A stretch of 64,000 nucleotides of DNA, from positions 22,641,710 to 22,705,709 of the forward strand of contig JARFYF010000046.1 in assembly GCA_030265395.1 (NCBI GenBank), given 5' to 3'. Below the pieces are notes generated by a model that made no database searches, had not been told where the DNA came from, and saw only the letters and a list, made by a program, of their open reading frames with translations. Source of the stretch: Rhina ancylostomus (lineage: Eukaryota). Positions 4,201 to 46,200 of this stretch are shown in pieces; position 1 is the stretch's first letter; each line of letters begins with the position of its first letter. A program made the position numbers and the translations under genes.

Positions 4201-7200
4201 TCAGGTTCATTCTGGCCACTGTTTGTAAAGAGTTTGTACATTCTCCCCATGTCTGTGTGGGCTTCCTCTGGGTGCTATGATTTCCTCCCACTTTCCAAAG
4301 ATGTCCAGGTTAGGAAGTTGTGGGCATGCTATGTTGGTGCTGGAAACGTGGCGACATTTGTGGGCTGCCCCCAGAACACTTTACACGAAAGGTGCATTTC
4401 ACTGTGTTTGGATGTATATGTGACTAATAAAGATAACATAAATGCCTCAGCTGTGACCTTTTGGACTTGCATACTGGCTTTGCCATTGATGATGGAGGCA
4501 TTCATGCAACTGTTCTTCCCTAGTTGTTTAATTATCAACAGTTATTCATGATTGGATGGGGCAGGACAGAAGAGCTTTCAATCTGGTTGTTGTAATATAA
4601 CTGAACCTTAAACATTCTTTCAATAAGCTTTTAATTCAAATCACTACTGACGTGTAAAATAAGCTTTCAAAGCAGATGCAAATTTCCAGGGTTAATGTAT
4701 TATTCCTTATCATGATGAATGAAACACACAGAAAATGCTGGAAACATCTGTTGTGAGAAAGAGTTAATGTTTCAGATCAGTGACCTTTCTTCAGAGCTAG
4801 GAAATGCTACACTTGTGTGGATCAAAATCTTAATTAATTAATGTGACCATATGGATGCAATAAAGCAATACCTGTCAAAGTCATTAGTAGACCTAATTAC
4901 ATAAGATTTTGTTGTTTCTTGTTAATGTTGCCAGTTTCTGGGCCAGAGCTGGGTAATTGCTAAATTTGGAACTAATATTGACTTTAGTTATTTTAGTTTT
5001 TAATCATTCCCAGAATCAAAAGGTTGAAGTTCTGCTGACAGGTTTTAGAATGAAACTATACAGTGGTTATGTGATTAAAATTTTTGACCATCAGGAGTTA
5101 AGTTTGCATATTCAATATCATAACTCTTTAGTCTTGCCTTGATTTTACCTGAAGTGATATTTTATCTTATAACAGGGAAAAAATCTTCCTTCTGCTTATT
5201 GTTATCTATTGGGTTTAGATGTCATATGACAACTGCAGCTGAATTAGATGAAATAAGTTGCAAAGAAGTATTCTTCCGATGATCATTGATTACAATCTCG
5301 CATGACAATTTGCCATTTAGATATTATGGAGGGCAGTGTTGTCAGTGGCTATCTCATGGAACACAACATAAGATATAAGTTATTTATTAGTCACATGTAC
5401 ATCGAAACACACAGTGAAATGAGTCTTTTTGCATTACTGAGAATGTGCTGGGAGCAGCCTGCAAGTGTTGTCACTCTTCTGGTGCCAACATAGCATGCCC
5501 ACAGCTCCTCACTTGTACGTCTTTAGAATGTGGGAGGAAATCCACACGGACACGGGGAGAACATACAAACTCCATACGGACAGCGGTGGGAAATGAACCT
5601 GGGTTGCTAGTGCTGTAATAGTGTTATGTTAACCTCTACACTACTGTGTAAAAGGAAGTAAATGGGTGGGGTGAGTTTGGAATTGGGGGGAAAATTTTGA
5701 GCAGTAGTTTGACATGGTATTGTATTTTCAATAAAGTTGTATCTGGGGAGTGAAGTTCACTTGGTTCACCTTGAATATGTAAAATTATTGAACAAGAGAA
5801 TACTGTTCCACACCAGATGTTCATTCAAAATATCTGGGGTATTTAATAAAATCTTATTTGTGTTTGTTTAAAATGATAACAATTTTTATTAGGTATCAAT
5901 TAAAAAAATGTGGCCTTGATTAATTTTAGTTGTATTTAAATGCAGAAAGAGTACGTAAGAAATTTTAAAAGCTTACAATTGACTTCTTAAAGTGCACTTA
6001 TTTCCTTTTTTATGTAAAGAATAGTGAGATTTTTCTTAACTGGCAGTTCTGTGGCATTGTCTTCAATTCATTTTTCATTATGACTTTTTATTTAACCTGT
6101 TTACCTTTTTTTTTAAGGTGGTCGCTCTCACTATTTGGAAAACGATGTACTTAAGTGGTGCTTCTGGAAGTCAACTTTTGATCTTGCAGCATTTTGCACA
6201 ATGAAAACATGTATTCTTATTGTAATTTACTTGACAATGGAGTCTATTGCCCTGAAACAGATTGATGATCTTAACAATTCCAATCTTAAACGGAAAAGGG
6301 AGCTCCTGCACCTGATTAGCTTCACCATCTCAGGTCTCTGGGTTGCATACACAATGGCCAAAGGAATTACGGTCCTTGTAACACGGAGCTATAAAGAGGT
6401 AAATGCTGTGTAATTTGTTAAACTTGTATCGAGAGTTGTAGATTTGCTTTATTAACAGTAGGGCATACAGGGGTATATATTCTGGACAACTGGAAACAAG
6501 GATGAGTTGAATCTTCCTTGCTATGGAACCATCAGAGTTTGGTCATTTCCTGGGAGTAAATACTAGCTATGTACTGTACGTGTGAGACTTGAGTTAAATG
6601 TGCTGCTACATGTTTCGTACGTGTCTTTATACTTCCTTATGACTTGGAAGGTGGCTGTTTGGCCCATCGAGTCTGTGCTAGTTCTTAGAACAATCCCATT
6701 CCCATTCTTATTTCCTGGTAACCTATTTTCTCTTGGATGCCTATGAACTCCATTTTGATTCTCATACGACCCATTACATGAGGGTAATTGGCTATTTTAA
6801 ATTACCCATCGGCCAGCCTGACTGCGATATGGGAGGAATATGAAGTACATGGTGTGGTTGCAGAGAGAATGTGCAAATTCCATACACAAAGCACTGAAGT
6901 CGGATTGGAACCGGAATCTGAATTGTTGAAGCTGTGAGTCAGCAGCATTACTATCTGTAACGATGCTCTGTGGCTGGAATCCATGTGGAGTCCATTGGCA
7001 AAGCTTGGCCTCAGTAGGGTTCCCTGAGGGGTGTATTGGTGAATTATTTTGCCAATCCTGAACCGAGTTAGACCAGCAAAGGATTGAAAATCCCATGTAT
7101 TCCAGTGGAGAATCTTGGCCAGTGGATCAGGAAAAGTACGTTTTTAAAAATTTTCCCCTTGAAAGCACTTACTGAACATTAAGGATAACGTGATTTTAAT

Positions 7201-10200
7201 TAGCTCTACTCTTTATATGTTTAATTTTTAATTATTTACACCAATTTTAATAGTTTTTAAATGCCTCTGAATATTGGTGTTATCTCAAAAATTATTAAAA
7301 CCATGCATTACCACCGTATGGGTAAAAGCAAATTCATCCTTGCATAATTCACAAGGCACTACTTGAAATTTGAGATACGGAATGAGATTTGTTCTTAAAG
7401 AATTTATGTAGGAAAATAAAAGGAAATGAAATGTTGGGGTTGACTTATTTTTGATTGATACATCAATTTGATTGTTTTGCTTGGCTGAATCAGGTTCATA
7501 CCCCACTACTCTTTTGTCACACATCAATCTTACTCAGTATCCATTGGACTGCTTGTTAGTTTATTCCATAAGCCCTTGCATATGGAGTAAAATACCCCCC
7601 TCCTCCCCCCATCCAAAATTATTGTGCAAGTATTTTCTGCTCATTTTAATGTAACAATAATCTTTGCATCTGCAATTTCCCTGCAAGCTTAGAAACCAAA
7701 CTCAGAGCTGCTTTGATTTGAATAATACTTTTTAATTATTTAAGTTTGTATATGGGTAATTAGCTTTACATTTCATGTCAAAAAGAATTTTTCTTATACA
7801 GAAAGAGTTTGAAATTTTACTTAACATATTGTGTGATGACTACTTGCTCTCTTGCTTCATACTGTTCTTTCAAATAAGGAATCAGTCATTTGAGAGTCCA
7901 TAGTTTCTTTCAGCATTTAATCTTGTAAAATAGGTTCCACTGTATATTTGCTGAATTAAAAAGCATTGAATTCTTTGAAATCTAGAAAAGCTGCAGGTTA
8001 TCCAAATTTTGTTTATAGTCATGTAATAGTCACTAGGTAATGTTATCCCATATAAAATCATGTATTCTATTGTTCTTGTGAGGTTAAAAAAATCTTCATT
8101 GTTTTAAATGAGCCTTTGTTTCCCATTGACAGATGCATCTAACATTCAAGATTGTTTGTATTTCTACCTTGGTCTTCAGCCTGGTTGAGTTCCCCTTTTG
8201 TGTTTTTTGTAACAGGTAATGGACACTGAAATGGTTGAAAAAAAACCCTATGAAGTGCATCTTTTAATAAAAAAAAATTACTTATATTTTGTTTTGTTGC
8301 AGTGTAAATTTTGATCTAATTGTTTCTGAACTTTTTTATGTTCTGGGCATAAATTTAGCAGTAATACCTGGCTAAGTGACCAGATAAAACTGCAAAGCAG
8401 GATTGTCTGGGGTGAAAATTGATATTAAAGCATTGGTCCATCTGTGAAAATACTAATTTAAGTATGAAGCTGAACCTATTATTAAAATCTCATTCTTGCA
8501 TAAAGGACTGCATGCTAGTCTAGAATGCATGGAAAGTGAGCTACATTTTTATCTATAGCCAGATGTAGGGGATCTGTGGTAACTTTCAAGAAAAGCTGGG
8601 GAATCTCATGGTGTTTCTGCCTGCAAACTTCCCTTACTGACACTACCAAAAATATAATAGCTGGGCACTTTTCCTTGAAATTNNNNNNNNNNNNNNNNNN
8701 NNNNNNNNNNNNNNNNNNNNNNNNNNNNNNNNNNNNNNNNNNNNNNNNNNNNNNNNNNNNNNNNNNNNNNNNNNNNNNNNNNNNNNNNNNNNNNNNNNNN
8801 NNNNNNNNNNNNNNNNNNNNNNNNNNNNNNNNNNTAGGACAGTTTTAATATTTATCATTGGTTTTGAGTAGAGTGACAGGGTGGGTAGTTGGACAAAGCA
8901 GATGATTTTACAGTGCATATATCCAAATGTACAAAGCATGGTAAGCTACAGCACAGATCACCGCATAGCATTATCATATGGTGATAGCATAGTTCCTACC
9001 TCAGGATGGGATTAAGTGATGAATTTTCAAGGATTCAAGACATTCAAGCAAGGAAGAAGGCATGTAATATTACTGATTAAAGAATATTTGGGAAGTGCTC
9101 ATTTGGGGAGATAAATTTCCTAAATCTAGAGTTAAGAAATCGTTAAAGTCCCATTACTCTTTTGGGTATATTCAATAGGTCATTGACTTGTGGGAAAGAT
9201 GTAGAGAAGGACGTAACTTTGCATGGAATTCAAAGGTATAGGAACTGTAAGAGTTTTAACTATAAGAGTAAGACTTATGGATAGCATAGTGACACAGCTA
9301 GTAGAGATGCTGCCTCACCGTGCTAAAGACCCGGGTTTAATCCTGACCTTGGGTTCTGTCTGTGTGCAGAGTTACGCATTGACCTTGTGATTGTGTAGGT
9401 TTCCTTGGAGTGCTCTATTTTCCACCCACATGTCAAAGACGTGTGGATTGGTAGTTAAATTGGCCACTGTAGCCAGGGAATAAAAGACGGCCACTGTTTC
9501 ATGCATGTTATAAGTTAATAACCTGGGTTCTATTTCAGAATTTTCAGAACTTAATATGGTAAACGGTGAGAAGGATGGTGATGGACTTTGAGGATATAAA
9601 TAGGTTGGATGGAATGGGGAGATAAATGGCAGATGAAATTTAATGGAGAAATGTAACTGAAGCATTTTGGTAAGAAGAATGAGGAAGGGCAAAATAAATG
9701 TAGACTAAATGCAAGAAGCTTGTGTTAATTCTCAGTAGAGCACTAATTCAGCTGCTATTAGAATATTGTATCCAATTCTGGTGACTGTGCTAGGAAGGAT
9801 TTTTAGGAGCTACCAAAAGATTTAATAGAATGGTCTTGGGAATGATGGATTTGGGTTACTTAGACTTGAGATGTTAGTGTTATTCTTGGAGCAGGAAATA
9901 CTGAGAGATGATTTTAAAAGAGGTGCTCAAAAGCATGAGGAATCTAAACATTATGAACATTTGGATTTGGTTCATTTGGACGTTTGGTTCTTCCACCATT
10001 GTGATCTCAACAATCGTTGAAGAACCAAAAGCCTTAGGTGCAACATAAAAATAATTGGTAGAAGAGGTGCAGTGAGTAGTTTCATGCAGTGAGTCGTCAT
10101 GATTTGGAATTTACTGCCTGAAAGGATGCTGGGAAGAGAATCAGTCATTGTTTGCAAATGTGAATTGGATAGATATGTAAAGTAGCAAAATAGACGTAGG

Positions 10201-13200
10201 TGGGGAATGGAACTGATGATCTTGCAAAAAGATTGTATGCATGGATCAAATGGTCTCCTTGCATTCTGTAACAATTCTTTTGATTGTATTTACTCCATGT
10301 ATTCAGTACATAAGGGGTTTATGAATAACTGTTTAAGTTTCTAGTTGGGATAATTGGTTGTCATTGTCTTTAATTACTACTTTCTGTCTCAGGTTTCTGA
10401 GAAGGTTGCAGATTTTCCGTATTGTGCAAAGCATTGAAGAAGAAAGGGACCAAAAAAGTAAAGCTGATCTTAAGCGCCTCTTCTTATTGGCCAAAGATGT
10501 GAGTATTGTTTGTGTTCTCAATAACTGTTTTCAAATTAGATACAAGTTCACTTTGCATTCAACATGTAATCCTATTTTGCATGCCTTGAATAGTTCAGAA
10601 ATAATGCTATTTAATAATCGTGTTTTAAGGAACTGGTTCATTGTTTAAATGAAAGTTATATTTATTTTAATTAAACTAAATGGGTAAAACATTTTGCACA
10701 TATCCTGTGAATTTCAGAACTGCTATCTTCACCATGAAGTGTTCCTCAAGAACTGTGACTTTGTAAAAGAGACTATGGAAATTCTGCTTTATGGAGTGTG
10801 GACTACTTGCCTTAACTATAATAAATCTTTGTTTAGGCAGAGTTGATTGGGGGTTCTCCTCTTACTGGTAGAAGCCCCATTTAAAAACTCTTGGAAAACA
10901 GTTTATACATGTTTTTAGGTTTTCAATAGATCTTAAGTGATTAAGAACAAGTGAGAGAACCACTGTGGCAAATTGCCCCATGGATATTTAAAAGCCACCA
11001 AATTCTTTAGATCTGTGGCTCAGCTTTTGAATCTTCAAGTGCCAATCCCTCTTGCTTCATCTTATTTAATTATTGATATTCCAGTTATTGGAAGAGATGA
11101 ACTAGGTATGTTAATTTACTAGAAAGTTGGCAGTAAATGTTAGGCAATAAGTATAATTAACTGATGGAACAGATATAGAGCATTAAGTCTCTCGAACTTG
11201 ATCTTTAATATATTATTGATTGACTTTTAATGTCTAAAATTTAGGGAAAGTATTAATAGATTTTGCACCATTTTTGTATTTCTATAACTGGTGCATTTAA
11301 AGAACTGGATAAGCTTCAACTGATCTTCTCTGTGTCTTAAAATATTTATTCTCGATATTGTGTAAATTTAAATGCTTCCTTAGTGCAAAATTACTATTTG
11401 GAGATTGCCACGTGCATATTACATTTACAATTTAAGTAACCAGAAAATATTTTCTTCTACCACAGGAAGTTTGGATTTGTATTGGTGGAATGCTGGCACT
11501 TCTTGTCTCCTGTCTTTCACAGATAGTGGCTCCATTTTTCTTTGGCAAGGTTATTGATTCGGCTATGGAATCAATGGGTATGTGAATTATTTTCTTTTGT
11601 AGCAGTGAAATGCTTGATGTAGAAATGGTAATAAGTCGGAAATCAATGAAATTGAGGAAATTGGCAAAAATAATGGTTGAAGGCTAGTTTATGATTTAAA
11701 AATATCATCTATATTAGACTGTTCACACTTGAGACAAAAATGTCAATAGGCCAGGCCTTGCTGTGTCATGCTGGAAGTTCCAAACAGAACAACCAGTGTT
11801 TAGCCCTTTTATTGGGTAGCCAGCCCAGGATTTCTATGCATTTGCTATCAAATGCGGAACATATGGAGCCCAGCAGCAGAGTTCCACCTTGCTGTGGTCC
11901 CCAATATTATGCTGGGAAATTGCTTTTTGGATCTTGTGTCAGGTTTAATCTGGTGCAGGATCTGAGGCCCATTGATTTTAGTGGACATTGTGGGCCATGG
12001 ATTGGGAGGCAAATCAGAAGATGAGTTTTTAAAAATATATTTTGATTAATTTAGTGATTGAGGTATTTTAGTAAACTATTTTGTTAAAATATTTTCAATA
12101 AATGTTGTTCTGATTCAATTTTAGTAGCTTTTAACTGCCAAAGATATTTTTTAAAAACTACTAAAAATAATCAAATGCAGATTTTACAGTGAGGAAAGCT
12201 GCAGGTTTTGTCAGCTGTTAATGTTGAGTGGGGTTTTGGGGATAGGTTCCCCTCAGTACAACACTGCATACCCCACTGCTCTAAGACTATGCCACTGGAA
12301 TCCAGAATGGTAGGCTTTCTGCACCTGGACTAGGTAAATGCAGGTGTGGATGTACTGTATAGTAATTTTGTTGTAGGTGGTGATTGGGTGCAGGGAGCAT
12401 GACCTGATAAATCCTCCTGTTTCCAAACTGAAGTGTGTAATTCAATGCTATCCACCAGAGGGTGCATTGATGCTGTTTTCAGAAGAAAATAAGTAGCCAA
12501 ATTGTGTCTAATGTGTCTAGTATTGTGACACATGTATTTCATGGTCAAATTGTGGCTTTGATCCAAGACATGATGGAAGCTAGGCCTTTGTGCTAATAGT
12601 TCTAATGTACATAAAGGATAGTGATATATTAGTATGACCTTAGAAATGAAATATCCTAGTAATTCCACCTTTTTATATTAAAAAAAAAGTTGAGTTTTCT
12701 GCTTTTGAAGTTCAGTAGAATTTTGTTACTTAAGTCACTGAGCAGGAATTGTTCTTCATTTTTAGTTTGCGTTTCTTTAGTTAACACTAAATTAATTTAA
12801 AAAATAACTTGAAGGCTATTTTCTCACTGCCAGCCTCAATGTTACTTGGCCCTTACATTGCTCATAGAAAGGGATTAACTATTTGAACGCTGTGCTGTTG
12901 AAACAAGGTTATATATTATGTACACTGCAATTGTTTCCACTGCAGTCCAGATGGTTTCATTGACAGGAAGATGTTGACTATAATAAAATTTTGACTGTAA
13001 CAATCTTTTCTCTTCTGCCTTGAGACAGTTCAATCGGCAGTATCACCACACACAGGCTCCTAATCTATTTTAAAATGAAAGCACAGACTTGGAATTCTAA
13101 AATTGGATCTACTGATGCAAGCCCCTTTATTTCCCTCTGTGATGAGAAGACTCCAAGTCAAGAGCCAATTTTGATCCTTATTCTCAGAAGCACCATCACA

Positions 13201-16200
13201 ATACTAACAGTTCCCATCTGTAACAAACCTCAGTTCCTGCAATAACTTCCATAAATGATGGGGATGGAGCTGCTGTTGCTTGGGGTCCAGATGCACCATC
13301 GTTTGGGTGATCAAGTGTATTGATAGGAATGTATTCATTTCAGTGGATCACTGCTGCACTTCCCAACTGTGCTAAAGCATATCTTGTAATCTATTTGTTA
13401 CTTCCCTGTCTTGGTGTATCTTTAACACTAATTTTCTTGGCTTCAGGATGGAAGAAGAGAGCCAAAATTATCTGCAGAATGAAACTGATGTTTTTTTTAA
13501 ATAAATTATTTTTTGGAACTAGGAATCAGAGGCCAGCATGTATTTCTAATGCCTAATTGTCTTTGGTGATGAGCTGTTCTTCCTGAATCACTGCAGTTGC
13601 TGTTGTTTTGGTAAAGGTACTTCCACAGTACTGTNNNNNNNNNNNNNNNNNNNNNNNNNNNNNNNNNNNNNNNNNNNNNNNNNNNNNNNNNNNNNNNNNN
13701 NNNNNNNNNNNNNNNNNNNNNNNNNNNNNNNNNNTGCTGGTGTTTTGGTAAAGGTACTTCCACAGTACTGTGGGGGAGGGGGTTCCAGGATTTGGATCCA
13801 GTGATGGTGAAGGATTGGCTATATAGATCCAAACTGGGGGGGGATAGTGCATAATTTGGAGAGGATCCTAGAAGTGGTGGTATCTGCACTTCTCTTCCAC
13901 ACTCTGTTTTCCACCCCCCCCACCCCCCACAAAGAATTTAATGGACATCAGGGGCACTGATGTGCACATTTTTTTGTGTTTGCAAACAATACAAAACTCC
14001 GAGCATTATTTTGATTTATTCAGAGATTACAAATCTGCGACTGATGCTGTATATTAAACTGTATTAAAGTCTGCGTCCTCTAACTTGCCATGAGCAAAAC
14101 CACTGGAAGTTTTTTGGCTATAGAATAGCAACCATTACCGTGCAAATTTGAAATAAAATTGAAATACTCAGCAGGTTAGACACCCTCTGTGGAGACAGAC
14201 ACAGGGTTAATATTTTGGATTCATGAAAGATCAAAGACTTGAAAGGTGAACTATCTCTCCACAGATGCAGACTGACCTGTTGAGAGTTAACAGAATTCTC
14301 TGGTTTTATTTTAATTTTTCAGCATTTTTTTGCTTTTCAATATGTACACATTCCCTCTATTATACCTGAGATCAGGTAATTTGGATAAGGAAGGAAAGAA
14401 AGAATTGGCATCTGTGTGGCATGATCTTAAAGGGCAAAGATGACCAGTGGGCTGATATGATCCTTTAACCTTAGAAGCCTGAAATTAGCTTATTTGTATT
14501 TGCTGCACTTTAATTTGTACTACTTTAGTTTAATTGATGTTCATCTTTATGTTTGATTGTTAAACTTCTGTTCCATGTATTGATTTATGCAGTTCATTGT
14601 CATTTGCTTGTAATTTTCTTCCATACTTCTATGCAACATTTTCTGCTCTTATGTTATAGACTTTTCCCTTTTTGCCTGCTGACCCAACTCAGAATGAAGG
14701 TTCCAATATCAAAAATGTAATAAACTACCTATTTAAATCTGGCAGCAATTTAGATTTTTATGCTCTGAGCACTTTTATTTGGAAGCATTTATCTTTCTCA
14801 AAAGTTTGACGTTGTTAATTTGGTCTTTGGTCAGCACTAGCAGTCATAATGAGTAGCTAGAATTGTTAATTGTAGCTGTAAAGTTGTTGATATAAACGGA
14901 AACATTTTCGACTGGTGTGAGTAGGTTACATCTTGTGACATGATACCCCAGAGTGAGCAGTCTGAACTTAGCCAGATGGATGCTGAGGGTAAGTTCTCTT
15001 CAACAGTGACTTTGATTCTTAGCTTGATAAGGCTGACATCCTAATATCAGACTTGTTGGGGCTTCCATGCGGGGTGGGGGGGGGAGCATGCAGTGAGGGC
15101 TGGGGTGGGGAGGATACAGGGTGATATTAACAGGCGAGTCCCTCTCTGCCCATCTCGTTGATGTATGATCTGAGTTTTGCAGCCAGCAGCAAAAGAAGAC
15201 AGTCTGAATTTTAAAAGTCTGACCATTTCTTCAAAAGGTTATGTCAGGAAATGTGATGAAGAGAGTCAGTCTCATTGCTATATTCCTTCACATAAGCAGT
15301 TGTTCAAATCCCATGTGCCGGCACAGTTTCAATTCCCTTTATTTTCCTTTCCTTCACCTATTCCTTTTGCCTCTGTTAATGCTGAGATGTATTTCCATAG
15401 CCTCTGTAAAAACAAAAGTTTCTCTCCCGTCCTTCCAGAGCCTTTACATTAGATCATACTCATTTGTTTAAGCTTACAAACATTGAAAAGTCTTTGTATA
15501 TCTACTGTACCTTCATGAGGTTTTGTATATCTACTAAATAACAATCTCTTTTTGATCTGATGGAAACAATCCGACTTGGTGTATTTCTTGGTATTTATAT
15601 TTCTTAATGCTCAGACAAAATCCTAATTTTTATTTCCTCATTTCAAAACAACTTTTAATTCAGCTTGTTACTCCCCAAAATTCTAGAATGTAGTTCTTTC
15701 CAATGGATGACTTGTGATATCTTGTCAAAGATTCAGAAGTCCATGAGGAGAATGTGTTTCTCTCTGATTCTGATTATCTTGGCCACTCAGAGGATTTCTA
15801 GTGACTCAGAAGGTAATTATTTGAGGTAAAAGTCCAAAAGCACAATTGAAGTGCTGCCTTTTTTCTTTAAATACAGCTCAGTTCAGACCACTATGCTTTG
15901 AAAGAATCAATTTACTAACACTGCCAGCTCATTGTAATATTCTCTCTAAGATTTATAACAAATATTCAATTTTTGATACTGTACAAAGTAAGTTGTATCT
16001 CTGCCCATCCCTGTAGTTATGAATCAGCAATTATGCTATAAGTGCTTTGTATGTTTGCATGTATGCCACACAATCCTTGCCTCTTATTTTGAATGTTTAA
16101 TCCTTTGTTTTTCTTGTTTGGAGCATATACTCAAGCATTAAGATTTAATATTGTTAGAATACTTAAATAGTATTTTCTTCACTATTTCAGCGGTCTTTAT

Positions 16201-19200
16201 CTTTTACTCCCTACCTATATTAATTAATCTCAAATCTAGACTCTCCCCACACCCTGCTAATTATCTTATTTAATTCATCTGCTCAGTGAGGTTATTGGTG
16301 GTCTTTTTGTTTCTTTGAAGCAGTCCAGTTTGGTGTGCCCACTAGTGGAGAACTTCTGCAGCAGCTATATAGCCACATGTTGACCTTAATCTTCCTCTCC
16401 AACCTTTTCAGTATTCAGCTTCATTTACACCACCTCTGCTTAGTGAGAAGCTCCCTGTCGAGGGGCCTGGAGCTTATCCAGGCTTCAGCAAATGCCAGGT
16501 AACACTCATGCCACAAAGACACCAAGTAATGTCTATCTTCAGAATAAAAAGGAACCAAGCACTTTTCCTGACATACAAAGCCACACTATTTAACATGCCA
16601 TTAATTATTGATCAGAAGCTTGGACCGTTGATATCCTTAGCATGATTACTAAAGCAGAATAGATGCTGGCTACTGTGCAGTGGGCACTTGCCTCCTGATC
16701 CCTCGTAGTCTCTCTCGCCATATAAAAGGCTTATGTTAGTGTTTTGGAATAACTAAGATTTTTTTTTTGATGGATGCATCTGTGATGGTCAAAAAAGTCA
16801 GTCCCTTCTGGAGCAGAGTATTGCATTTCATTGTTAGTGAACCACTGGCTTTAGTATTTGCCTCTTCTACTGCTGGAGCACTGTGTACTATCTATTAGAA
16901 ACATCACAACAGTTTGCCAGAACAATTGCAATAGCACTTCATAACCCACCAAAAAGACTGCCAGATGCAAAAAAAACCCAGAAAATACTAGCAGTATCAA
17001 TGAGGAGAGAAATAGTTAATATTTTGGTTTGATGACTTTTCATCAGAGCTAGGAAAAGATAGAACTTTTTTAAATCCGAGTAGTAGAGAAGGGAGGAAGG
17101 TTGAGAGAAGAAAAGAGGAGGAGACCAGGAGGCTTTCAATTATACAAATGATGGTGCTGACAAGAGGAGATAAAAGCTTGTGAATAATGAAAAATAAGTC
17201 CAGGGGTAGTGTGAATAAAGAGGCAGTGAACAAAATCTGACATCTATTCAAGATGAGAGAGTGTGNNNNACTTGGTTATTAATTAAACTTCCTGTGGAAA
17301 TCTGAGGTTGTTTGCTAATGTTGTAATGACACCTTTTAATAAGGTTTATGATCCCACAACGCATCTGTCAAAGGGAAGAATAGAAATTTATTGAGTGATT
17401 GAGTCTTATCGCTACATGTAGTAAATAATTCTTGGGCATACCAGGAAAAATACTTTTTGCTTTCTCTCTGCCCCCCTTCCCCAATCTAAATTTTCTTTGC
17501 TCATTTTACTTCTTGCTCTGACTAATTTGACCTTGGGCTGTTATCAGATCACAATTTTAGCCATTTACACACAAATATCAAGCTGAAGGGGATTGGTCAA
17601 TGGAACAGTTGGTGAGGTGCCACATTCCAGAAACGTATGGATCAATTTTGGTTTCTGGATCTGATTTAAAATTCATCCCAAACAGAAAAAGGAATCTTAT
17701 TGTAAGGAATGACTATAAGGAAATGTGGGACAGTGGGATGTAAATTGAAGGTCTGCTGCAGAGGATCTTTCTTAACTGGATTTGCAATGGTTCCATTGCA
17801 CATACATGTACAGCTTTGCATTATATGTTAAAGCTTTATCATCTTGGTTGTTGAATGGCAAATACCTTATTAGTTGCTCAACTCAATTGGACAAATATTA
17901 TTCCCTTTCCATTTTCTATGCAGTAAATGAGAGCCAAAAACATGCTTAAAGAAAACGTGAGGAAAAGGTGTATTAAAAACCTTATTATAACTCTTCAATG
18001 GGTAGTTCTTTGCAGTCGATCTAATATTCAGTGTTTAAAAAATCAGTTTGTATGATTGCTGTTTTTTTTTCCTTTCAGAGGAACTTGACAGAATGATTCT
18101 TATCCTCTTCGGCATATATGTTGGTGGTGCTGTTTGTTCATTTGTCCGTGCCTACTTTTTTGTTCTGGCGGGTCATAGGCTGGTGGCCAGACTACGTAAA
18201 AGACTTTTTGGGAGCATTATAAAACAAGAAATTGCATTTTTTGATGAAAACAGGTGGGTGCCCTGGATTTGGAGAATGATGAGCCTTTTAATTGTGATAA
18301 ATCAAAGGCTTTAAATGCAGAGGCTTGTGAAGATTAGCTCTTTGGAATTTAAGCTGTAGTCATTAAAATGTGATGACAGATTTCTACGGGATTTATTTTT
18401 TTCTCCTTTGAATTCTTTAAATTGTTGCTTGACTCAAATTGGTTCCTGAATATAATTTCTGAGTTCAGAGCTGTGTAGAATGAAAATGCAAACATGAAAA
18501 GAATGTATTGCATCATTTAGTTGTAATGAAACTTGGATACGTTTCTCCCTTCAGTGAGACTTTTCAGGATGAAAGATGTGGTGGACTGGGCTCGAAACTT
18601 CTTCCCAGCTGGTGTTCATGTTGCAGCGGGAGATAGATGCACCAGATAGAATCCCTCCCAGTAGTTAAAGTTAATCATGCCTTAGATTTCAATGTTTAAT
18701 GTGTTGTCTGACCTAATGATGAAAAGTATTTGCATTATCATTTAAATATTCTGTGTTCAGTGGTAATTTGTGATAAGGGTGTGGAATGATTTGGGTGAAA
18801 TGTTATATGGTTATTGAAGAAAACATTCATTCTAAACTATTATTTATTCAGTTTTCTTATTATCGTGTGGCTATTTCACACAAGGAGCATTAACTTTGAC
18901 ACCTCACAATTTCCGATAACACATATATTAGCTGGCAAACTATTTAAATCCAGATCTTAATATTTGCTTGTGTTTCAGAAATTTGTCCTTGTATTATAGG
19001 AACAACTTAATTATGGTATTGACCATGCAGATTATAGACTAATCAATGATTTTGACATTTGTGTGTTTACGATAAGAGAATTGCATTTGAACTCTATTTT
19101 CTTGTATTCAGTATGAGAAGCTTTAAGCATACCATCTTGAATGCTGGATAATCAAAAGTACAAAACTGCCATTTCATGCTGAGGTCAGTTGCAAATTGAG

Positions 19201-22200: not shown

Positions 22201-25200
22201 AGAAATTGAGATGTTCAAGCTTTTAGTGCATATTTCAACAGCTGAAAATATTTTAAAATCTAAGTGTTGATTTACTAAGTATACATCCTGCTGAAAGAAG
22301 GATTGTTTACCTGTTATTTTACTGGTCTAGTCAGGAAATGGAACCCTCCAAATAGAGTTGGAAAGTATAATGAATAATAGGGATTATGATTTATAAAATG
22401 TTGCAGCACCATAGGGAAAGTTCAGTGTATCCTTGCTGCTTGGGCTTATCTCAATTCATTCTCAGGTCTTTGGGATAAGAAAGTGGTGAGGAAATCTTGC
22501 ATATAAGACTTGATAAATGATTTATTATTACAATGTAAAGAATATTTTATAGTTCTTGCATGTACTTTTGTTATTATGAAATGTATTATGATAATTCAAA
22601 GTTCCTGACTATAAACATCAAGAATAGCCAGATGAGAGGAATAACCTTTGTACTAATGATCTGTAATTACAGCTGTAATTATTTGGTTAATATAAATCAA
22701 AGATAGGTAGAGATTCTTTGAACAACTGGAATGTTTACTTGATTACTTACAGTAAACTTGTACATTTAGAGTGACTTTGGAAATGTTTCAAACCAGTAAA
22801 CTTTTACAGTATCAAATTTAAGGAAAAACATGAATGTTTTTATAGAGCAACCTCAAACGTTTGTGGTGATGGTCCTAAGAACTTCTGAAATACTGCAAGT
22901 AAAAACTGGAAACCTATCTGCTTTGTTTTGAATCAGCAGAACATTGAAGGAAAAATCTTAAATTTGGATCCTTTTAATTATCAAGCCATTAATTTTTATA
23001 TGGTAGTGTGTTTTATTTTACTAATGGAGAAAAGTGCTATATTTGACAGCAACTTTGAACCACTAGATCCTTTCCGAGCAAAGATCTAATCCAGATGTCT
23101 TTACTTTCGAACTTGTCCTTTTCAATACTACTTTGCTTTGTCATTGATGACCATATGTATGAAATGTAGTGACAATTCATCTTTGTTATACCTTGTCAGA
23201 CTTGGCTATCTTGAATCTTCTTTCACATTGGTATCTGATGTAGCACTTATTTTTTTAAATGAGGAAAATGTCAGTAAAAGCACTTCAAAGGCAGCTAGCA
23301 CAGGAGTGGGATTTACAACAAAATAATGAATGGAGTCAAAAATGACTGAATAATGAATGCCAGCCTCAACAGGAAGGAAACCATATATGCACCTCATGTA
23401 AAATGGAAAAAATTTGTTAATGTTTGTTTTTCACTCTTGAGCCTAAATTTAAGTTGACACTCTAGTGCATTACTGAAAGTGCCTCTTGTCTGAGGAAACA
23501 TTTTTCAGGTAGGATATTCACCAAGACCTCATCTGATCTCTCAGATGGGTATAAAATATCCCATGGCCCCAATTCAAAGGAAAGTGAAGATTTTGATCTT
23601 GGGCCAATATATTGTCCCTCACTTAATGTTGGTAAATATTACATATCCATTTCCATTTTTGAATGTTCATATTATATAAGTTTATTTGTCACACTTCCTA
23701 TAGTGCGATGATAAATAGCTAAAATATTTTTTGAAATGTTTTTGCATCTCCTGAAAGATGTGTGAAAGTTGCTATCTGAATGCAAGTCTGGCTGCTTAAT
23801 TTTCTTATTTAAATTCCAGCTGATTGTTTTAATCAACATTGAAATAATCTAAGTTGAGGGAAGCTGTTGATAGGTGACCATGGCTTCCATCACTGCTGTT
23901 CTTTTAGTTTTCACTTTTTTTGGGGGAGGGGAGTGGGAAACCGTTCGTCTATGAATGCCTAATGCACGTTTATTGAGGAAATGATTATGAAGCTATAGCT
24001 CTAACTTTAAAATGCACACTGATTTGTCCTTTTAATCTAACATACTTTGGTTAAAGCTTTTCTTGTTAAAGTTTAGGTGAACATTAACAGTGCTAAATTT
24101 ATTTTCTGATTTAGTACACAGACAAAGGCACTTAAATAACTCTAGTTTTAATGAAAAGTCCTCAACCCTAAAACTGTCAATAAATCCTTGCTTAAAATCT
24201 TGTCATGTATAAAATGTGTATTTGTTTTATTAATCAATTCTGTAATTTTCCTACTGTTTTGTTGGATGCAGTAATTAAAAATAATTGGTCTGTTGCTACA
24301 TTGGAAATAACATTACTTAATGACAACAAAAAGGAGTTCCTATTACTTTGTATTCTCCTCCATTACTTTTTATTTCCATTCATCTAAGTCTGGCCTTGCA
24401 TACAAATCAGACAAATAGTGGACCAGTCTATTCGTGTTATTAAACTACTAAGCTTATTAGAAATTCACTTTTTGTCTCATTAATCACTTAGTTTTTCACT
24501 AATTGACAATTATAATGTCAGTGTTGTTAGAGTAAGATATTTGCAATAGTTTTAACTTTAAGTAGTTTATTTGGAGAGTTATTTATTTTTAATATTCTTG
24601 ATATTAAAAAAACTGAACTTTTTCCTTGCAGAAAAGCAATTGAAATTTTGAAACCTGTCAGAAACACTGTGTCATCTCTTAATTGCAATATAATTTTAAT
24701 TTACCTCCAAAATTAGGAATATTATGTGCAACAATAAAATCTACTCAGTGTAATTGTGAAGTTAGCAAACCTTGGAAGAGGAAATGTATATTGCTGAGTT
24801 CAAATGTATTTCCTCCAGTTATTTTCCTTCACTGCCAGTTTTACTCCCAGAGCAAATGGCAGGAGCATTTTGAAATTGGCAGTTCAAAGCTCCAAAAATA
24901 TTCTGTATTTGTACATGACAAAACACCATTCCTTTTTTTAAATAAGGATAGCAGTCCTTTTCTGCAATAAAAAGCATGTGTTGACATTTCTTTCACTTAA
25001 CCATTCTCTGTCATTTGTATTTGTGATATGCGGCTGATGTTTCCAATCCATGCAAAGCTCTATTTTAAGTCAATTTGATTAACCTAAATATGCAATTAAA
25101 CTTTATATTCAAATAGTTTGTCATTTTGGCCAAACTTTAAATTAAAAATTTCTCTTCCAACAGAACCGGTGAATTAACAAATCGCCTGTCATCTGATACT

Positions 25201-28200
25201 CAGATCATTCAGAATACTTTAACGGTAAGTACAAGAACAAACAACTTAAGTTTGCATCTTCAGTATAAATAAAGTTCATACAATTTAGTGCTTTCTTTTA
25301 ACAAACTATGTAAATATGTAATCACAAACATAAATTTTTGTGTGGTGCATGGGTATATACGTACTTGAAGTGTTTAGATGCTCAGTTAAGGGATTCAAAT
25401 GATCTGTCNNNNNNNNNNNNNNNNNNNNNNNNNNNNNNNNNNNNNNNNNNNNNNNNNNNNNNNNNNNNNNNNNNNNNNNNNNNNNNNNNNNNNNNNNNNN
25501 NNNNNNNNNNNNNNNNNNNNNNNNNNNNNNATCACCAAAATTTATTCCTCTGGAGATTTCTTCAAGGCAAAAATGCAGCAGTGGCAATTTTGATTCTTAA
25601 TATAGTGATGAAGCTTCTGTACAGTGAACGGTATTTTATCGTCTGTAGTATTATGATCGTAACTGAAAAGGTGCGAAAACTAATCTATGAAAATTATGAC
25701 AATGAAGTACAGCTGTTTATTTTAAATGGTTAGTCACAATTGTACATTGCTTTTACTGTAGGTAAACCTGTCCATGTTGCTGCGATATACATTGCAAATA
25801 ATTGGATCTATCGTTCTCATGTTTGTCGTAAGTCCGGCATTGACTGGAGTACTCCTTGCATCTGTTCCAGTTGTAGCAATTGGAGGAGTGCTTTATGGTG
25901 AGTTCAATTTCAGCCTCAATCTGTACGTTCTTTATTGGAAAGAGGAAACATTGGCCTACACTCACATGTGGAAGCTGTAGTCAACTATTGTGTTTATCAT
26001 TTCTCTATTATACTATATTTAAAAAAAAGGTGGTAGTTTCTTTTCCTGTAATTTTTATGCATTTTAATGCACTGTTTTTAAATGTTTCACCTGCAATACC
26101 CCAGTTTTCACCTGATTTTATTTCATAGACCTCCATGTAGGTTAATGCTACTGTTCCCTCCAGTTACTACAGGAGGAAGATCACCATTTGGCCATGACCT
26201 TATCCATTGTTACTCCTAATTCTTTGTTCCATGCAGACTAAAAAGTATTCACAGCACAAATAGATCATTTGGCCCAGCAGATCCATTATATACCTATAGT
26301 ATAAAGAGCCTTCTCCCTACCTTGCTGCATCTAATCCAATTCAATACATCCCTCTATCTCCATCTCCCTCCTTTTTTTCTTAATTTCTTATTAAATGCAT
26401 CCATGCCTTGAATAGTCCTTGTGATAACGAGTTCTACATTCTAACTACTTTCTGGGTAAAGAAGTTGCCCCAGTGTTCAGGCTTTTGCATTTATTAGTGA
26501 TGGAAGGTTGGGCCATAAATAGAAGACTGACTCTTTATGACTAATCAAATCTGCAGATGCTGAAATTGCTGGAATAATACTCAGCAGGTCAGACAGCATC
26601 TGTGGAAAGAGAAGCAGTTAACATTCCAGGCCTGTAACTCCCTATGCCCCCTTTTCAAAAGAAAGCCCCCAGCCTGTTCACTCCTTGTCAAAAAATGAAC
26701 CCCAACTTTCAGTTCTATGTTAAATGCTGTTGTAAGGATAAAGACGTTCCAAAGAGAGAGGTGGTCCATACTCACTTTGTTTAAAATCCAGGAGTTCAGC
26801 CTCAAAATATCAGTTATCTCTGATCTGTTTTGCTGATTATCTTCTGTAGCCGAGCAGAATTGTTACTTGTGTCTCTGCATGAGTGTATTTTCATAAACCC
26901 TACTAAACTAAAACCTTTTTATCCACAAATTAGCTTGATTTTCTTTACACAGTTCTCCAGTAGGAAGAAATATGGCATTATAAAACATGGCACATTTTTA
27001 TTCTATGGAAATACTGTAAACATCAGTTGTAGGAACTTGTTTCTGGATTTATTCTTTTCAGCTTCATTAAGGATTTGAAAATCTAGTTTTCTGGTAGGAT
27101 ATAATTAGTCCATGGTGTGCTTCAATCAGTATTTTCCAATAATTAAAATACATTAATCAAACAAAAGACTGAAATCCTATTGCATATTGAAATATTTTTA
27201 AAAAGACAAGTTGTAATAATTGGTTGTCAAGTATTTTGCATATGCTTAGTAAATGCTCATTCCTCAAAATGCTGATAACATTGTTTGGTTTATGCTGATT
27301 ATCCAGGGGAATTTGTGAAGAGACTATTTCTAACATTCGTACTGTGAGAACATTCTGTAGTGAAAAGAAATCTGAAGAACTGTATGGCAAAGGAATAGAT
27401 AAGAGCTATCAGATTGGGAAAAAGTTGGCTCTGGCAGAAGGTATTGTTCCATGCTTAATGAATTTTAAACAACTTGGGTTGTAGTAAATATGTTTTATTC
27501 CAACTATATATTAGGATGTCCTGTTTTACTCCAGCTTTTTGTATCCATCTACCATTTAATTCATTTTTCTTTTGGGATGGTGGGAAGAAATGCTATTGTT
27601 AAGAGCAGCAAATGATAATGCAGTGCATTAAGACATCTTATTTTGTTTAGCCTAACTTCTATGGCTGGTGAAATCAAGAATAAAATTGACAATGTTTGTT
27701 CAAAAACTTTCAAAAATTAAAGATTAAAGGTCAGAATTTTTGAAAGTTGTGATTTGCATATCTCTACAGGATATTTTATTTCAGGAATGCCATGAATTAA
27801 GAAATTTGGTCTTGTTGTTATCGTGTTGTTTTTGGGAACTTGCTACATACAAATAGCTTATAATTCAAGCATCGTTTCGGAAGTACATTGATTTACGGCA
27901 TTGAGAAAAGCACAATATAAACATAACTATTCATCTTTCTTTGATCATTGTTTGTTGTTTTGCATTCCATCGTTGACAAAAATGCCCTGCATTGCTACTG
28001 ATTTTGCATTTAAAAGAAAAAGCATGACAGAGGGAAAGATCTGCTGGGATCCACCCAGATCTGCTGCCAGATTAGTCTAACTGGGCTGATCCTGACTGTA
28101 GACAAGAGTGCTGGCCTGGGGACATCTTGATGCTGCCAGCTTCTGTGGATTTCCTAGCTCCAAGGCTGGGGAACTGCCTGCTCAGATTGTATTAGGTTGG

Positions 28201-31200
28201 ATCTGGGTCAAGAATAATAATGCCAGTAAAATGAAGGGGAGTTGGTTACTGGGTGGAAGGTAGATTATAGCCTTCCTTTTGATTTTTAAATTACAAAATA
28301 ATATTTTTCTTTTTGTGTATGTTTTTTCAGTAGGATTTTTAAATATAACTCTTTTCATCCACGTCGAATAATTTTGAATGTGGTGAAAGATATTTACAAG
28401 TGGTCCATAATTTTGACATCCAGTGAATCTGTGGGCAAAGCCTCGCCAGCTGTCTTAGCCATTCAGTCAGTCAGCTGTTTAGTTACACTGGCTTAGATCC
28501 TCCTCCTGCACCATGTTAGGCTGAGCTATATGGATGTACTGAGAACTAAATTTCCCAACAGAGAACTGCATCCATGAGTACTCTGGAAGAAGAGCATGGT
28601 CTAGGGGCAAGTGGTCATATTTTCTCTCAAACTAATTTGCTCTCGGAATTACCATCATGCCAGTTAAAGTTGTGTCCCATTTGTGGGAGAGGTAGGCTTT
28701 CTTTGAAATATTTACAGGTTATGCCTTCTATATCCATATTTGTGCAATTGCAGTGTTTTTTAAACTTGAAGCTACTGGTGAATAGGACCATTTGACAAAA
28801 CATAATTCACTCTGGGAATGAGCCCATTTTTCTGACAAGATTTGGGTAGATTGAGTACTTCTAGCTAACTATCTCACTGGTAAGAGATGACGTGCTCTTC
28901 TTGAGAAAATTGAGTGAAAATTTGTACTTCAATGAAATCCATTTTCAAAAGATAATACGTGATTACAAATTTCCATTGGTCACAAGGAAGGACTTCTAGT
29001 CAAATGAATTGTTAACTTGACAAGTTTATGATTTGTTAATTCTGTGATACATCCAATCAATTTTAGAAATTTTCATCCTTGTTTTAACTGCATAGCCTTT
29101 CCTCTTTTCATTGGTAATCTCCTCCAGTTCTGAAAATATCTGAAATCTCCTTTTCCTTAAAACTGGCATCTTATTTATTCCTGAGATTTCCACTTGATCA
29201 TTCAGTTGCCTGGGCATTTAGCTATGGAATCCCCTCCCTTAATCTCTCCACCTCTCCTTTTAGGGTGGCCTTAAGAATCTATTTTCTTTTCACTAGTTTT
29301 GGTCATCTGTTCTTAAGTAATTTGGTGTCAAATTTTGTTTGGCGTGGTACCTTATTGTTGCAAGGATGCATGAAATCAGTAACTGTATTGTTGACACTGT
29401 ATAAATGAAGTAATATTTATAGTACTTAAAAAAACAAATGTGTCAAAAGTTCAAAGCTTTGGAGGTATTAGTTCATTTTAGGCAGTAAATTAATATTAAC
29501 AAAATTAATAGAATACTATTAGCATTAGTCATTCTGCAAAATGTGAGAAATGACTTACTGATGAACATTGTTCCAGACATACATACCAAGTATATCCTTT
29601 TCTGTTTGACCATTGGGTTCAAAGCTGGCAGTTTTATTTTTATTTTCTGCTAGTCGATATTTGTTTTAATAGTTTGCTGCACACTAAGATGCTTTTGTGG
29701 ATACAATTTACAAATTTGCTGTCTGATATTTTCTAACTTTTAAAACTTGTCAGTGGGCTACAAGCAATAGAATACATGTGCCGATATCTTCACATGTGTA
29801 TGGTATGATAAACAGCAAGAATTGAAACGGCACCATCTTCACAAAAAAAATGTTTAGCAACTGTACTTTTTGGTAGTAGGACAAATGCCAGACAAACTAT
29901 ATTCACCATGATGGAGACAAGTTTACAACACTGATAGCTTTCTGACTTCATACTTCTGCTGGGGAACCTCACCAACTGGAAACACATATTAAACATTTGG
30001 CAATGTCTGTCTATCTTTGCAACAATTAAATCATTAAATTACAATGTTGACATGAATTTTAAATGCATGACCTCTGGAAGCAAATCACAGTCTCCCTTAG
30101 CATTATTAAAGATCACATTGTCATATTGTAAACAAAGATCAAGAAAAGTACTTGTGTTTTTAAGACCTTGCATTCTTCAAAGCAATGAGTCATTTGTACT
30201 AAATCCTGATATAAAAATTAATTTCTGAGATTTTTAATGTATGAATACTTGATGTTGCAAAGTTGTTGAAACAGATGTGCGGAGAAGATCCCANNNNNNN
30301 NNNNNNNNNNNNNNNNNNNNNNNNNNNNNNNNNNNNNNNNNNNNNNNNNNNNNNNNNNNNNNNNNNNNNNNNNNNNNNNNNNNNNNNNNNNNNATCCCAA
30401 GTAAAGCCAAGTTTATTGGGCTTTGATTCTAAAGGATCAAGATTTAAATTTCAAAACTACATAGTAAGAAGTTAATTGGAATAAATCATTTTGCTAGTTG
30501 CATGGTGTATTAATTGACTGAAGCCACTGCATGATACAGAAAGGCTTTTTAAAAATACTGACACTATTACTTTTGTAATATGTACCCAAATCTATCAGTC
30601 TCTGCGTTACAGGATAAAGTTTATTTTTCAGGCAGTTCAACTATAGTTGCACTTGCCCATAAATGTTATGGTTAGTATTTTTATTGTGATACTCAACCAC
30701 TTTTTTGATTGATTCATGTATTTTTTGGGAGTTATCTCATTGTTAATTTTGAGGAGTAAATTTCCATGTTGCTCTTATTTTGTTTAATTCAAGGGACTGA
30801 ATAATAGTTTGTTTGAATCCAGATATGATGTTTTTTTACTTTGTATATTTTTAGGGTCCTTCAACGGGCTGGTGCTAACTATCTCACAGGTAAGAGATGA
30901 CTTGCTGCTCTTGAGAAAATTGAGTGAAAATTTGTACTTCAATGAAATCCATTTTGAAAAGATTATACATGATTACAAATGTCCACGTTTTTGCTTTTCA
31001 TCCAGTCCCAATTTGTGTCTAACAAATGCAGCAGAAGTTCATCTGATTTACAAGGTCATCTTGGAGTTAAAGTATGAATGTATATCACTCTTGATGGAGG
31101 AGAACAGGAACAAATACAACCTAATGTGAGACACATTTTTCAAAAGCAAGTCTGATGTTGCCAGTAGCCCAGACCTTTAAATGATAAATTATGCTTAACT

Positions 31201-43200: not shown

Positions 43201-46200
43201 ATCCCCAATTTGAATTGCACTAGTTCCTGTGCTGTAGGTGCATCAAAACTTTTTTTTTCAATGGCACTTGCCAAATTCCTTAGCTCCACCTCCTTGTCTT
43301 TCTAAGGGGTGGAGGCTAAGGATTTGGTAGGTGCTATTGGAGTCCTGGTGAGTTGCAATTCTGCAATCCCCTGACCTACAAAAGGAAGTAGCAGCATTGG
43401 TAGCAGTCCAAAATAATTTCACTAGGTTAATTCTTAGGATGAGAGGATTAACCTGTCAAGAGTCTAAACAGGTGGGTCTGTACTCTGTGGAGTTTAGAAG
43501 AATGACGAACGATTTTGTTGAGATGTACAAGATCCTAAGGGGCATGACAGGGTAGACATTGAGATGTTTTCACTCATGGGGGAGTCTCAAACAAGGATGC
43601 ATAACCTCCAGGTATTGATCTTTTACACTTGAGGTACATAGAAATTTTATTTTCAGAGGGTAGCAAACCTCTAGAATTCTATAACCCAGATGGTTGTGGA
43701 GGCTATTAAAAGTATTTAATGTGGAGGTAAACAAATTTGTGAAAGATCAGGGAATTGAGGGTTATTGGGAACTGGCACAGAAGAGGAGTAGAGGTCAGAG
43801 TAGATTTGCCATGAATGGTTGGGCTGTCTTGGAAGGGCCAGGTGGCCAACTCTTTCTCCTACTTTCCTGCATGTTCTTGTGTTCAGTCTATTGGTTTTAT
43901 GTACTGCACTTGTAGTGCACCAGAGGAGGGAATGAAAATTTAGAGTGGTAGATGGGGTACCATACAAGGAGGTTGCTTTATACTGTATGATAACAAGCTG
44001 CCTGACAGTTGTTGGGATTGCACTTGTTCAGACAAATGGAGGGTATTCCACTTGACTGGAAATACTCTGGGAGTTAAGAGCTGCATCTGCCACTGCAGAA
44101 TATCTCGTCCGTGACCTAACTCTGTAATAGTTTTATAGTCCAGTTAATTTTCTGGTCATGAGTGACTTCTTCCAAGATATCAGCAGAAGATATGCTGATG
44201 ACAATGTACTGATTGTCAAGCGGAGTTGTTAGACTTTTGTTGGTGATGGTCATTGCCTGGCATTTAAGTAACTTGTTGCAGGAACCCCTGCCTTAATGTT
44301 ACCTTGGTCATTATTTGTAAGATGCTCTACAATAATTGGGCATGATTATTAGATCATTTAAAAAAAAACAAATGAAGGAAGCGATATATCGGAGTGACAA
44401 GGGAATAGAGGTATAATGCAAAATGGTAAGAGGAGGTAGGAGAGCGATTGCATTGAACATGAACTGGTGTAGAGTCATAGGGTTGATTTGCTTCTATGCA
44501 TGATGAAGTGGCATAGTGGACCATTGCTTCAGTCAGGAAGAATGTAGTTAATGACTAATTTATGCTCTGAGCAAGGCAAAATTAGATGGAGAAATTCAAA
44601 AGGGGAATTTTAGGAATGATGAGCACTGTCTTGTGTGGAAATCAAACAAAATCTTTGAAGAGGAAATGAATGTTCAGTTTGGAATATGGGCCAAATGCAA
44701 ATGGGACAAACACTGGGCACCATGGTTGGTGTGGATGTGTTGGGGTGAGAGTCCTGTTTCCATTCTGTATTGCTCTTTCTCTCTATAGTATGGTAGTCAA
44801 AAACAGGGTTATTTTGCTGGGGGTAATGCTTCTAAAAATGTTTAAGTTAACACAATGTTCAGCAGTTCATGAAAAAAATTGTAAAGCCCCTTAGACTCTT
44901 TTTCCAACAAATTAACTTCCATTTGTGTGAACACATCTATGTTAGATCTATACTGTTATACATTAGAAAGAACTCAAGTATCTTGATCCCAGTCTCAGTT
45001 AAGCTCTCATTCTCTTATGCTGGCACCTACTCCAGCATTCCCTCATGATATCTGCAAAGCAATTGTAGAATTTCACAAAATATAAAAAGTTAAATATTTT
45101 TCCACTTTCTCAACTTCAAATCAGACTTGTACAGCTGATATTATTTTTGGGCCTTGATCATCCAATTATAGATTAAGCCATCAGCCCCTCATCAGCAGGC
45201 TATGCAAATCATAGTGGAAAGCTGCAATTGCATCGCATGCACTCCATTCTTCAAGGTGATAATCTGCCTCCATGCCACTCCCAGAGCCTGTTCAGGATTT
45301 TGAAACTACTTGCACAGATATTTGATGTATAGTGTTTTGTTGCTGCTTTTTTTAAAAGTTTTTTTAGTAAAAGCAGATCAGCATTTTTCTTCAATTATGT
45401 TAAGTAGTAAATTTGTGTATGTTTTCATAATTTTAATCATTTTATTTTCATAGATGTTGGAATAAACTTTCATGATTAAACTGTATTTTGAAACTACTTG
45501 GAGTTTTTTTTTAAAAAAGGAAAATGACACTCTAGATATTAAGAAATACCTAATTTAGTGACGGCATAGATTTTTTTAAACTATTTGAAATTAAGGAGCA
45601 AGGAATTTCTTGAGTTCAATTTATAAGTTGTTCCTTGTATGGTGTTCTCAATTCTCAAAACATCTGGGGAGACAATAACATGAATTATTTTAATATTGCA
45701 GGGTGCTATTGTGCTTGTGTTATGGTATGGTGCAAAGCTAGTGTACGATGGAAGACATGGAAAATCTGGAATTTCTTTTGGGACTTTAGCATGTAAGTGA
45801 TAGAAACTGCACTCTTTGCAAAGAATTTATGCATGTAGATGATTATCTGAAATAGTTATATCTGTACATAATTGGTTCCAAAATAATTTAATCAACACAT
45901 TTCTGCCCCTCTGCAATCTGCAATAGAATTTCAGGTCAACTTTTTGAAATTCTGCTGTAATCTGCTGAAGGATCAAGGTGTAGATTTATTTGTTAGGGTT
46001 ATTATGAAAGAACATAAGAAATAGAAGCAAAAGTAGGCTATTTAGCCCTTTGTCTGCTCCACCATTCAATAAGATGATGGGTGATCTTTTTACTTCTCCA
46101 CTACTTGCCTGAACAAACTTGGTATTACTATTGAAGCTGATATCTAAGGAAAAATTCACTCCCTAAATCATATTCATAGTCACAGAATAGCTTGGCATAA

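Follow-up and report, generated by a model that had tools for sequence, protein, structure and literature searches.

Exon 9 of an ABCB transporter gene in the Rhina ancylostomus assembly is 55 nt short, and the reading frame is broken there. We propose that the missing bases were probably dropped by a false join in the assembly, at a short chance repeat, rather than by the animal. The gene lies on the forward strand of the 64,000-nt stretch of DNA that was analysed (the window). Judged by bit scores, it belongs to an old animal lineage of ABCB half transporters that ranges from choanoflagellates to lampreys and cartilaginous fishes.

Gene map and the exon 9 lesion

With an orthologue protein as guide, 15 coding exons were mapped in the 64-kb window, from 1098 to 58153. 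The features are listed by position.

1098-1209, + strand: coding exon 1, open, GT-AG; exons 1-7 encode the N-terminal membrane domain and the start of the core TMD
6118-6398, + strand: coding exon 2, open, GT-AG
8133-8215, + strand: coding exon 3, open, GT-AG
10393-10498, + strand: coding exon 4, open, GT-AG
11466-11577, + strand: coding exon 5, open, GT-AG
18079-18253, + strand: coding exon 6, open, GT-AG
25164-25224, + strand: coding exon 7, open, GT-AG
25762-25897, + strand: coding exon 8, 136 nt, ends in phase 1
25898-27306, + strand: intron 8, N-free, no sequence for the missing 15 residues
27307-27440, + strand: coding exon 9 as assembled, 134 nt, AG/GT ends, phase 1 in and 0 out
27316-27326, + strand: deletion junction, 11 nt that fit both V-K-R-L and A-E-E-T-I; core 9-mer at 27317-27325
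27345-27347, + strand: premature TGA (codon 369), with the exon 9 donor 93 nt downstream
30855-30889, + strand: coding exon 10, 35 nt, in frame with exon 8 when exon 9 is skipped
45702-45792, + strand: coding exon 11, open, GT-AG; exons 11-15 encode the end of the TMD, Walker A and the Q-loop
50133-50300, + strand: coding exon 12, open, GT-AG
50821-50882, + strand: coding exon 13, open, GT-AG
54345-54471, + strand: coding exon 14, open, GT-AG
58020-58153, + strand: coding exon 15, open, GT-AG; the gene runs on past the window end

All 14 acceptors are AG and all 15 donors are GT, and exon 9 is the sole frame break in the 15 exons. The exons for residues 625 to ~800, with the signature motif, Walker B and the H-loop, lie past position 64000. 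The statement in the sequence-only reading that all other exons are intact therefore applies to the 14 remaining exons of the window. Pfam domains ABC_membrane and ABC_tran are both matched by the window exons, and 61/61 family members have a single ABC_membrane domain with a single ABC_tran domain after it. By this domain order, the gene is classed as an ABCB half transporter (type IV exporter).

Exon 9 has 134 nt, compared with the 189 nt required by the orthologues. Adding 55 nt gives a 189-nt exon with phases 1/1, as had been proposed. Re-reading the frame with Y-G-E-F-V-K-R-L gave the same first stop as before (TGA at 27345-27347, codon 369) and the same product of 368 aa. The two overlapping frames described earlier are both there; the shifted one, however, extends six further residues (F-L-T-F-V-L) before the stop. 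The 9-mer GAAGAGACT (27317-27325) closes V-K-R-L in one frame and gives E-E-T in the other, and it occurs as a single copy on the + strand of the window, at 27317. Nonsense-mediated decay follows a 50-55 nt rule. Since the TGA lies 93 nt before the next junction, decay is expected, and the lesioned transcript is a predicted target.

Exon 9 encodes what we take, from the general architecture of type IV exporters, to be the stretch from the cytoplasmic end of TM4 through the second coupling helix into the first part of TM5 (Pfam ABC_membrane positions 184-223). This region, TM4-TM5 with the coupling helix, aligns without gaps to the structures of ABCB9, ABCB10 and P-glycoprotein.

Two local copies of 112 nt, 93% identical, were observed at 28864-28975 (intron 9) and 30874-30985. 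The copied segment spans the exon 10 donor, taking in the final 16 nt of that exon and the first part of intron 10. The copy at 28864 is preceded by AG, which makes a 15-nt frame-neutral micro-exon possible. It does not correspond to the missing piece of exon 9, and 93% identity seems too low for it to represent a second haplotype. The starts of introns 9 and 10 (27441-27481 and 30890-30930) translate much like the read-through tails of one skate-like and one catshark protein, which shows that these intron starts are conserved across rays and sharks.

The missing segment in orthologues

A search with the downstream half of exon 9 gave 17 candidates, of which 10 were chondrichthyan clusters, and 20 named species were drawn from the listed cluster members (15 of 21 listed for the shark cluster). 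Fifteen residues between K-R-L and E-E-(T/I)-I-S were found in 20/20 of the species compared, which are those with an annotated protein, so that losses elsewhere would not show. A 55-nt gap, with 12 adjacent placements, restores the orthologue protein exactly. The animal's own protein was absent from the listed members of nine orthologue clusters. A further search of representative sequences with the Pristis protein returned, in its best 150 matches, mostly full-length transporters of ~40% identity, which were left out.

The segment is old. In an alignment of the Hypanus reference and 110 further matches, which reaches sponges and choanoflagellates, it is present in 109/111 proteins; the two exceptions are one exon-skipping isoform and one other isoform. 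Q367 (109/111) and L370 (110/111) are near-invariant, as is A377, and the F-Q-D-x-L segment is kept from choanoflagellates to rays.

The missing 15 residues were sought in all six frames of the whole window, as a whole and in three parts, with no match above background; the best match on either strand scored 24, compared with a self score of 72. Intron 8 is free of gaps, as had been stated, with zero N across 25531-30293. Near exon 9, there are no tandem or direct repeats that account for the loss. A search for short proteins of 33-107 aa with exon 9 and its own intron flanks gave no candidate, a result that weighs for neither side.

By residue differences, Pristis pectinata is the closest to the window protein, which the tree places among the rays without a supported sister. 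The Pristis and Mobula isoform X4 models start at a Met that matches residue 203 and have no N-terminal domain, possibly a short isoform or an effect of annotation.

The deletion junction

The overlap of the two readings, which had been given as 9 nt, is in place; its length is 11 nt (27316-27326), and this allows 12 placements of the gap. When random deletions of 20-100 nt were simulated in back-translated exons, only 5/20,000 reached a two-way fit of at least 11 nt. The loss thus appears to have been guided by homology, a conclusion that is well supported by the simulation. The junction carries no inserted bases and lies on a direct repeat at the level of codon compatibility. The proposed microhomology origin is accordingly well supported, whereas the identical 9-nt pair that went with it is less certain, because roughly half of each copy has been lost. 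At least 9 identical bases would be expected with a probability of 8% without a homology prior, and of 52%, 80% or 94% at weights of 1.5, 2 or 3 per base; for at least 10 identical bases, the figures are 3% without and 27-68% with the prior. Exact repeats of at least 10 nt at a spacing of 30-100 nt occur 18 times in the window, so substrates of this kind are common. The homology signature alone does not separate biology from assembly.

Relationship to other ABCB transporters

The sequence-only reading had compared the gene with ABCB9. The 15-residue spacing taken from that comparison is correct, but the gene itself is not ABCB9. Identity with ABCB9 was rejected on the bit scores of the Hypanus orthologue, 482 to ABCB9 chain 7v5c (mouse-length) versus 685-1062 to a separate lineage, a comparison of scores only rather than of a tree that includes ABCB9. 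ABCB10 scored 487. The orthologue also missed the cut-off of the ABCB9/TAP family (TIGR00958, 625.5 bits versus the 874.6 needed). Within its own lineage, it scored 1062 to lamprey, 940 to amphioxus, 831 to the placozoan Trichoplax and 718 to the choanoflagellate Salpingoeca.

Among the best 120 of 530 matches, 87 rows carry a species name, with no bony vertebrate in their number, and the other 33 rows, which are unnamed, all score below lamprey. The lineage has likely been lost in bony vertebrates, as judged from these matches. Ren et al. (2015) reported a lamprey ‘ABCB10-like’ gene that is described as not placeable in their tree (PMC4458048). In a full-text search of a paper library, the name ABCB10-like was found for this lineage only in that paper.

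Exons 1-4 encode the N-terminal domain. The Pfam domain MENTAL (cholesterol-capturing domain) matches near the N-terminus of 22/61 family members, with a best E of 3e-6, and none of the chondrichthyan rows in this 61-member set has the match. It hints at a possible endosomal, sterol-related role and is taken as a lead only. An atlas search with the N-terminal 185 residues returned only leads below 0.9, and TMD0_ABC was found in 11-26% of members. The lineage may interest specialists more than the deletion does.

Discussion

The lesion is present in the assembled sequence. In the account that we favour, a short-read draft would have had a small coverage hole inside exon 9, and the sequence ends on either side would have been joined. 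The join would have been made at a chance direct repeat of 9-11 nt, formed by the V-K-R-L and A-E-E-T-I codons 55 nt apart. It would retain one repeat copy, and the bases between would go missing. The animal itself would then have an intact ABCB half transporter of ~800 aa, like its relatives. This account starts from what the sequence shows, a lesion at a homology-guided position in a fragmented assembly with the other exons of the window intact, and supposes that a short-overlap joiner was used and was active at exon 9.

The window contains eight N-runs (152, 100, 4, 122, 100, 100, 488 and 10 nt) between pieces of 0.8-11 kb, and this gapped structure points to a short-read draft. The ends overlap across 2 of the 8 gaps. 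At the gap at 13635 the overlap is 37 nt with 1 mismatch (13598-13771), and at the gap at 30294 it is an exact 6 nt (30288-30399), with a chance of 6.5e-4 per gap. These two 100-N gaps are probably not real distances. GapFiller is reported to close a gap once the overlap reaches 10 nt, and to tolerate a size difference of at most 50 nt (PMC3446322). rnaSPAdes is described as gluing tips on 8 nt and one read pair, with false connections at lower thresholds (PMC6736328). We simulated gap closure on the window in a simplified model, which differs from the actual assembly programs. With a 10-nt rule, 7-19 of 15,000 closures were wrong and 1-11 of these lost at least 30 nt; with an 8-nt rule, 48-125 of 15,000 were wrong. 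Some of the wrong closures lost 45-65 nt. A similar 10-nt rule is used by genomic SPAdes.

The junction permits up to 11 nt of identity, the 15 exons and 29 splice sites show no second lesion, the end branch is ordinary, and the gene is intact in 20/20 species compared; all of this is consistent with a false join. There are also points against it. Tools that demand longer overlaps would not make such a join. The 55-nt loss is slightly above the default 50-nt tolerance of GapFiller, and identity over at least 10 bases is an estimate (3%, or 27-68% with the prior). Exon 9 lies 1.8 kb from the nearest upstream N-run and 2.9 kb from the nearest downstream one, the local GC of 0.30-0.36 is ordinary, and the 20 intact species are limited to those with an annotated protein. 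Assuming a few hundred thousand closures per such genome and ~1% coding sequence, we would roughly expect from less than one to a few false coding deletions per genome, each of them with long homology. Genuine frameshifting losses of this size and with homology as long are assumed to number well under one per genome. With a discount because the joiner is only supposed, this comparison gives a modest lean to an artefact; the probabilities that we attach to all four readings rest on assumed genome-wide rates. The sequence-only reading had ranked a null allele or pseudogene beside an assembly collapse. We find the collapse somewhat likelier, on the gapped assembly, the 8-10 nt joining rules and the lack of a second lesion.

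A real deletion could have arisen by replication slippage or MMEJ between the repeats, with the sequenced animal a carrier or homozygous for a segregating null allele, whose haplotype the assembly would display. Its transcript would be degraded by nonsense-mediated decay, or else be translated into 368 aa that lack TM5-6 and the NBD. The clean junction with zero inserted bases and an 11-nt two-way fit is what such an event would leave, and the lack of a second lesion or of a rate rise is expected of a young allele. Germline deletions of the same type are documented and common: microhomology is reported in 29% of human pathogenic deletions >30 bp (PMC9069542), and hundreds of germline MMEJ-type deletions of 6-100 bp are reported in PMC11662932. 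However, homology of at least 9 nt is expected in all short-overlap false joins and is assumed for only a minority of natural deletions, a share for which we found no figure in the literature. A heterozygous 55-nt bubble often breaks a short-read contig rather than being cleanly reported, and any one genome carries few frameshift alleles in conserved genes. A null allele is possible, though rather unlikely. We consider it quite unlikely that the deletion is fixed in this ray lineage and marks the first disabling step of a unitary pseudogene. Some vertebrates seem able to do without the family, with bony vertebrates in 0/87 named rows among the best 120 of 530 matches, and G546S alters a nearly invariant column; the same G546S, however, is found in the intact Carcharodon protein. 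The 14 other exons and 29 splice sites in the window hold no further stop, frameshift or splice loss, and Pristis pectinata, the closest named relative (7 differences in 406 residues), has an intact exon. Over residues 203-624 the window protein has 2 private changes in 406 residues, compared with 2 in Pristis and 0-32 in the 20 intact species; over 608 positions it has six or seven rare residues. Its end branch is 0.0095 compared with a median of 0.0086, in a tree to which Pristis contributes just 406 columns. Both measures, branch length and private changes, are thus ordinary, with low power to see relaxed selection at elasmobranch rates. Mutation in elasmobranchs is very slow, reported as 7e-10 per base per generation (PMC10587355), and a dead gene may stay clean-looking for long. 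Six lineage changes over 1,290 nonsynonymous sites give a 95% upper bound of ~0.010 per site if neutral, which at this rate corresponds to >10 million generations. The cleanliness of the sequence is therefore weak evidence against a fixed loss.

The lesion could also be real in the DNA and be rescued in the transcript, through inclusion of an extra small exon, use of a displaced donor or acceptor, or exon 9 skipping. Intron 8 offers 52 frame-restoring AG..GT cassettes, and two of them (26557-26587 and 27072-27093) score like true sites in a matrix built on the splice sites of this gene. However, no resemblance to the F-Q-D-x-L segment is seen in any of the ten top-scoring cassettes, and the scan of the whole window gave no match to the missing segment. 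The small missing exon that had been doubted earlier thus finds no support in the window scan or in the intron 8 cassettes. An in-frame acceptor at 27321, inside the exon, scores -5.7 versus 4.7; among alternative donors nearby, the best reach 2.6-3.4 versus 6.6. Skipping of exon 9 stays in frame, and the same skip is annotated in isoform X3 of the bamboo shark Chiloscyllium plagiosum (XP_043571583.1), but it costs 63 residues that include the coupling helix. By analogy with the type IV exporter architecture, rescue of the frame would presumably not be rescue of function. We regard rescue by splicing as highly improbable.

All four readings are known kinds of event. If the false join is correct, the gene is a clean example of short-overlap joining that fakes a gene loss with convincing microhomology, and it shows that single-lesion pseudogenes in draft shark and ray genomes require validation by reads. 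A real deletion would be an ordinary loss-of-function allele or young pseudogene, of special value only for the uncharacterised ABCB lineage that it affects. A fixed deletion, improbable as it seems, would be the start of the loss of an ancient ABCB half transporter in one ray lineage. Vertebrates would then have lost the gene a second time, after the apparent loss in bony vertebrates, and this loss would be seen in its earliest stage. It would also provide a natural knockout for a transporter without a known substrate, whose N-terminal domain is weakly MENTAL-like.

The window gene can be compared with several known systems. Its chondrichthyan orthologues are annotated as ‘ABC transporter B family member 1-like’ half transporters. 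The proteins of Pristis pectinata (XP_051888060.1; 98.3% identity over 406 residues, 7 differences) and Hypanus sabinus (XP_059844068.1; 96.1% identity over 608 residues) are colinear with it; the window copy differs in lacking 15 codons and 10 nt (55 nt, including one repeat copy), out of frame. The lamprey proteins have 60% identity, and one of them, at 790 aa, has the length of the published ABCB10-like protein, a link made by length and cluster only. ABCB9 (TAPL) and ABCB10 share the half-transporter layout, the 15-residue spacing and the gap-free TM4-TM5 alignment, and ABCB9 also shares the extra N-terminal membrane domain. Compared with false closures of gaps in short-read drafts (GapFiller with 10 nt, rnaSPAdes with 8 nt), the overlap length, the size of the loss and the gapped context match, for a joiner that is supposed here. 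A search of papers by matching terms found no documented case of an assembly false deletion at microhomology. The lesion also resembles the products of MMEJ or replication slippage, in that one repeat copy is retained, no bases are inserted and the loss falls in the 6-100 bp size class. It differs from them in that the intact allele is known here from codons alone, and short-overlap joining leaves an identical footprint.
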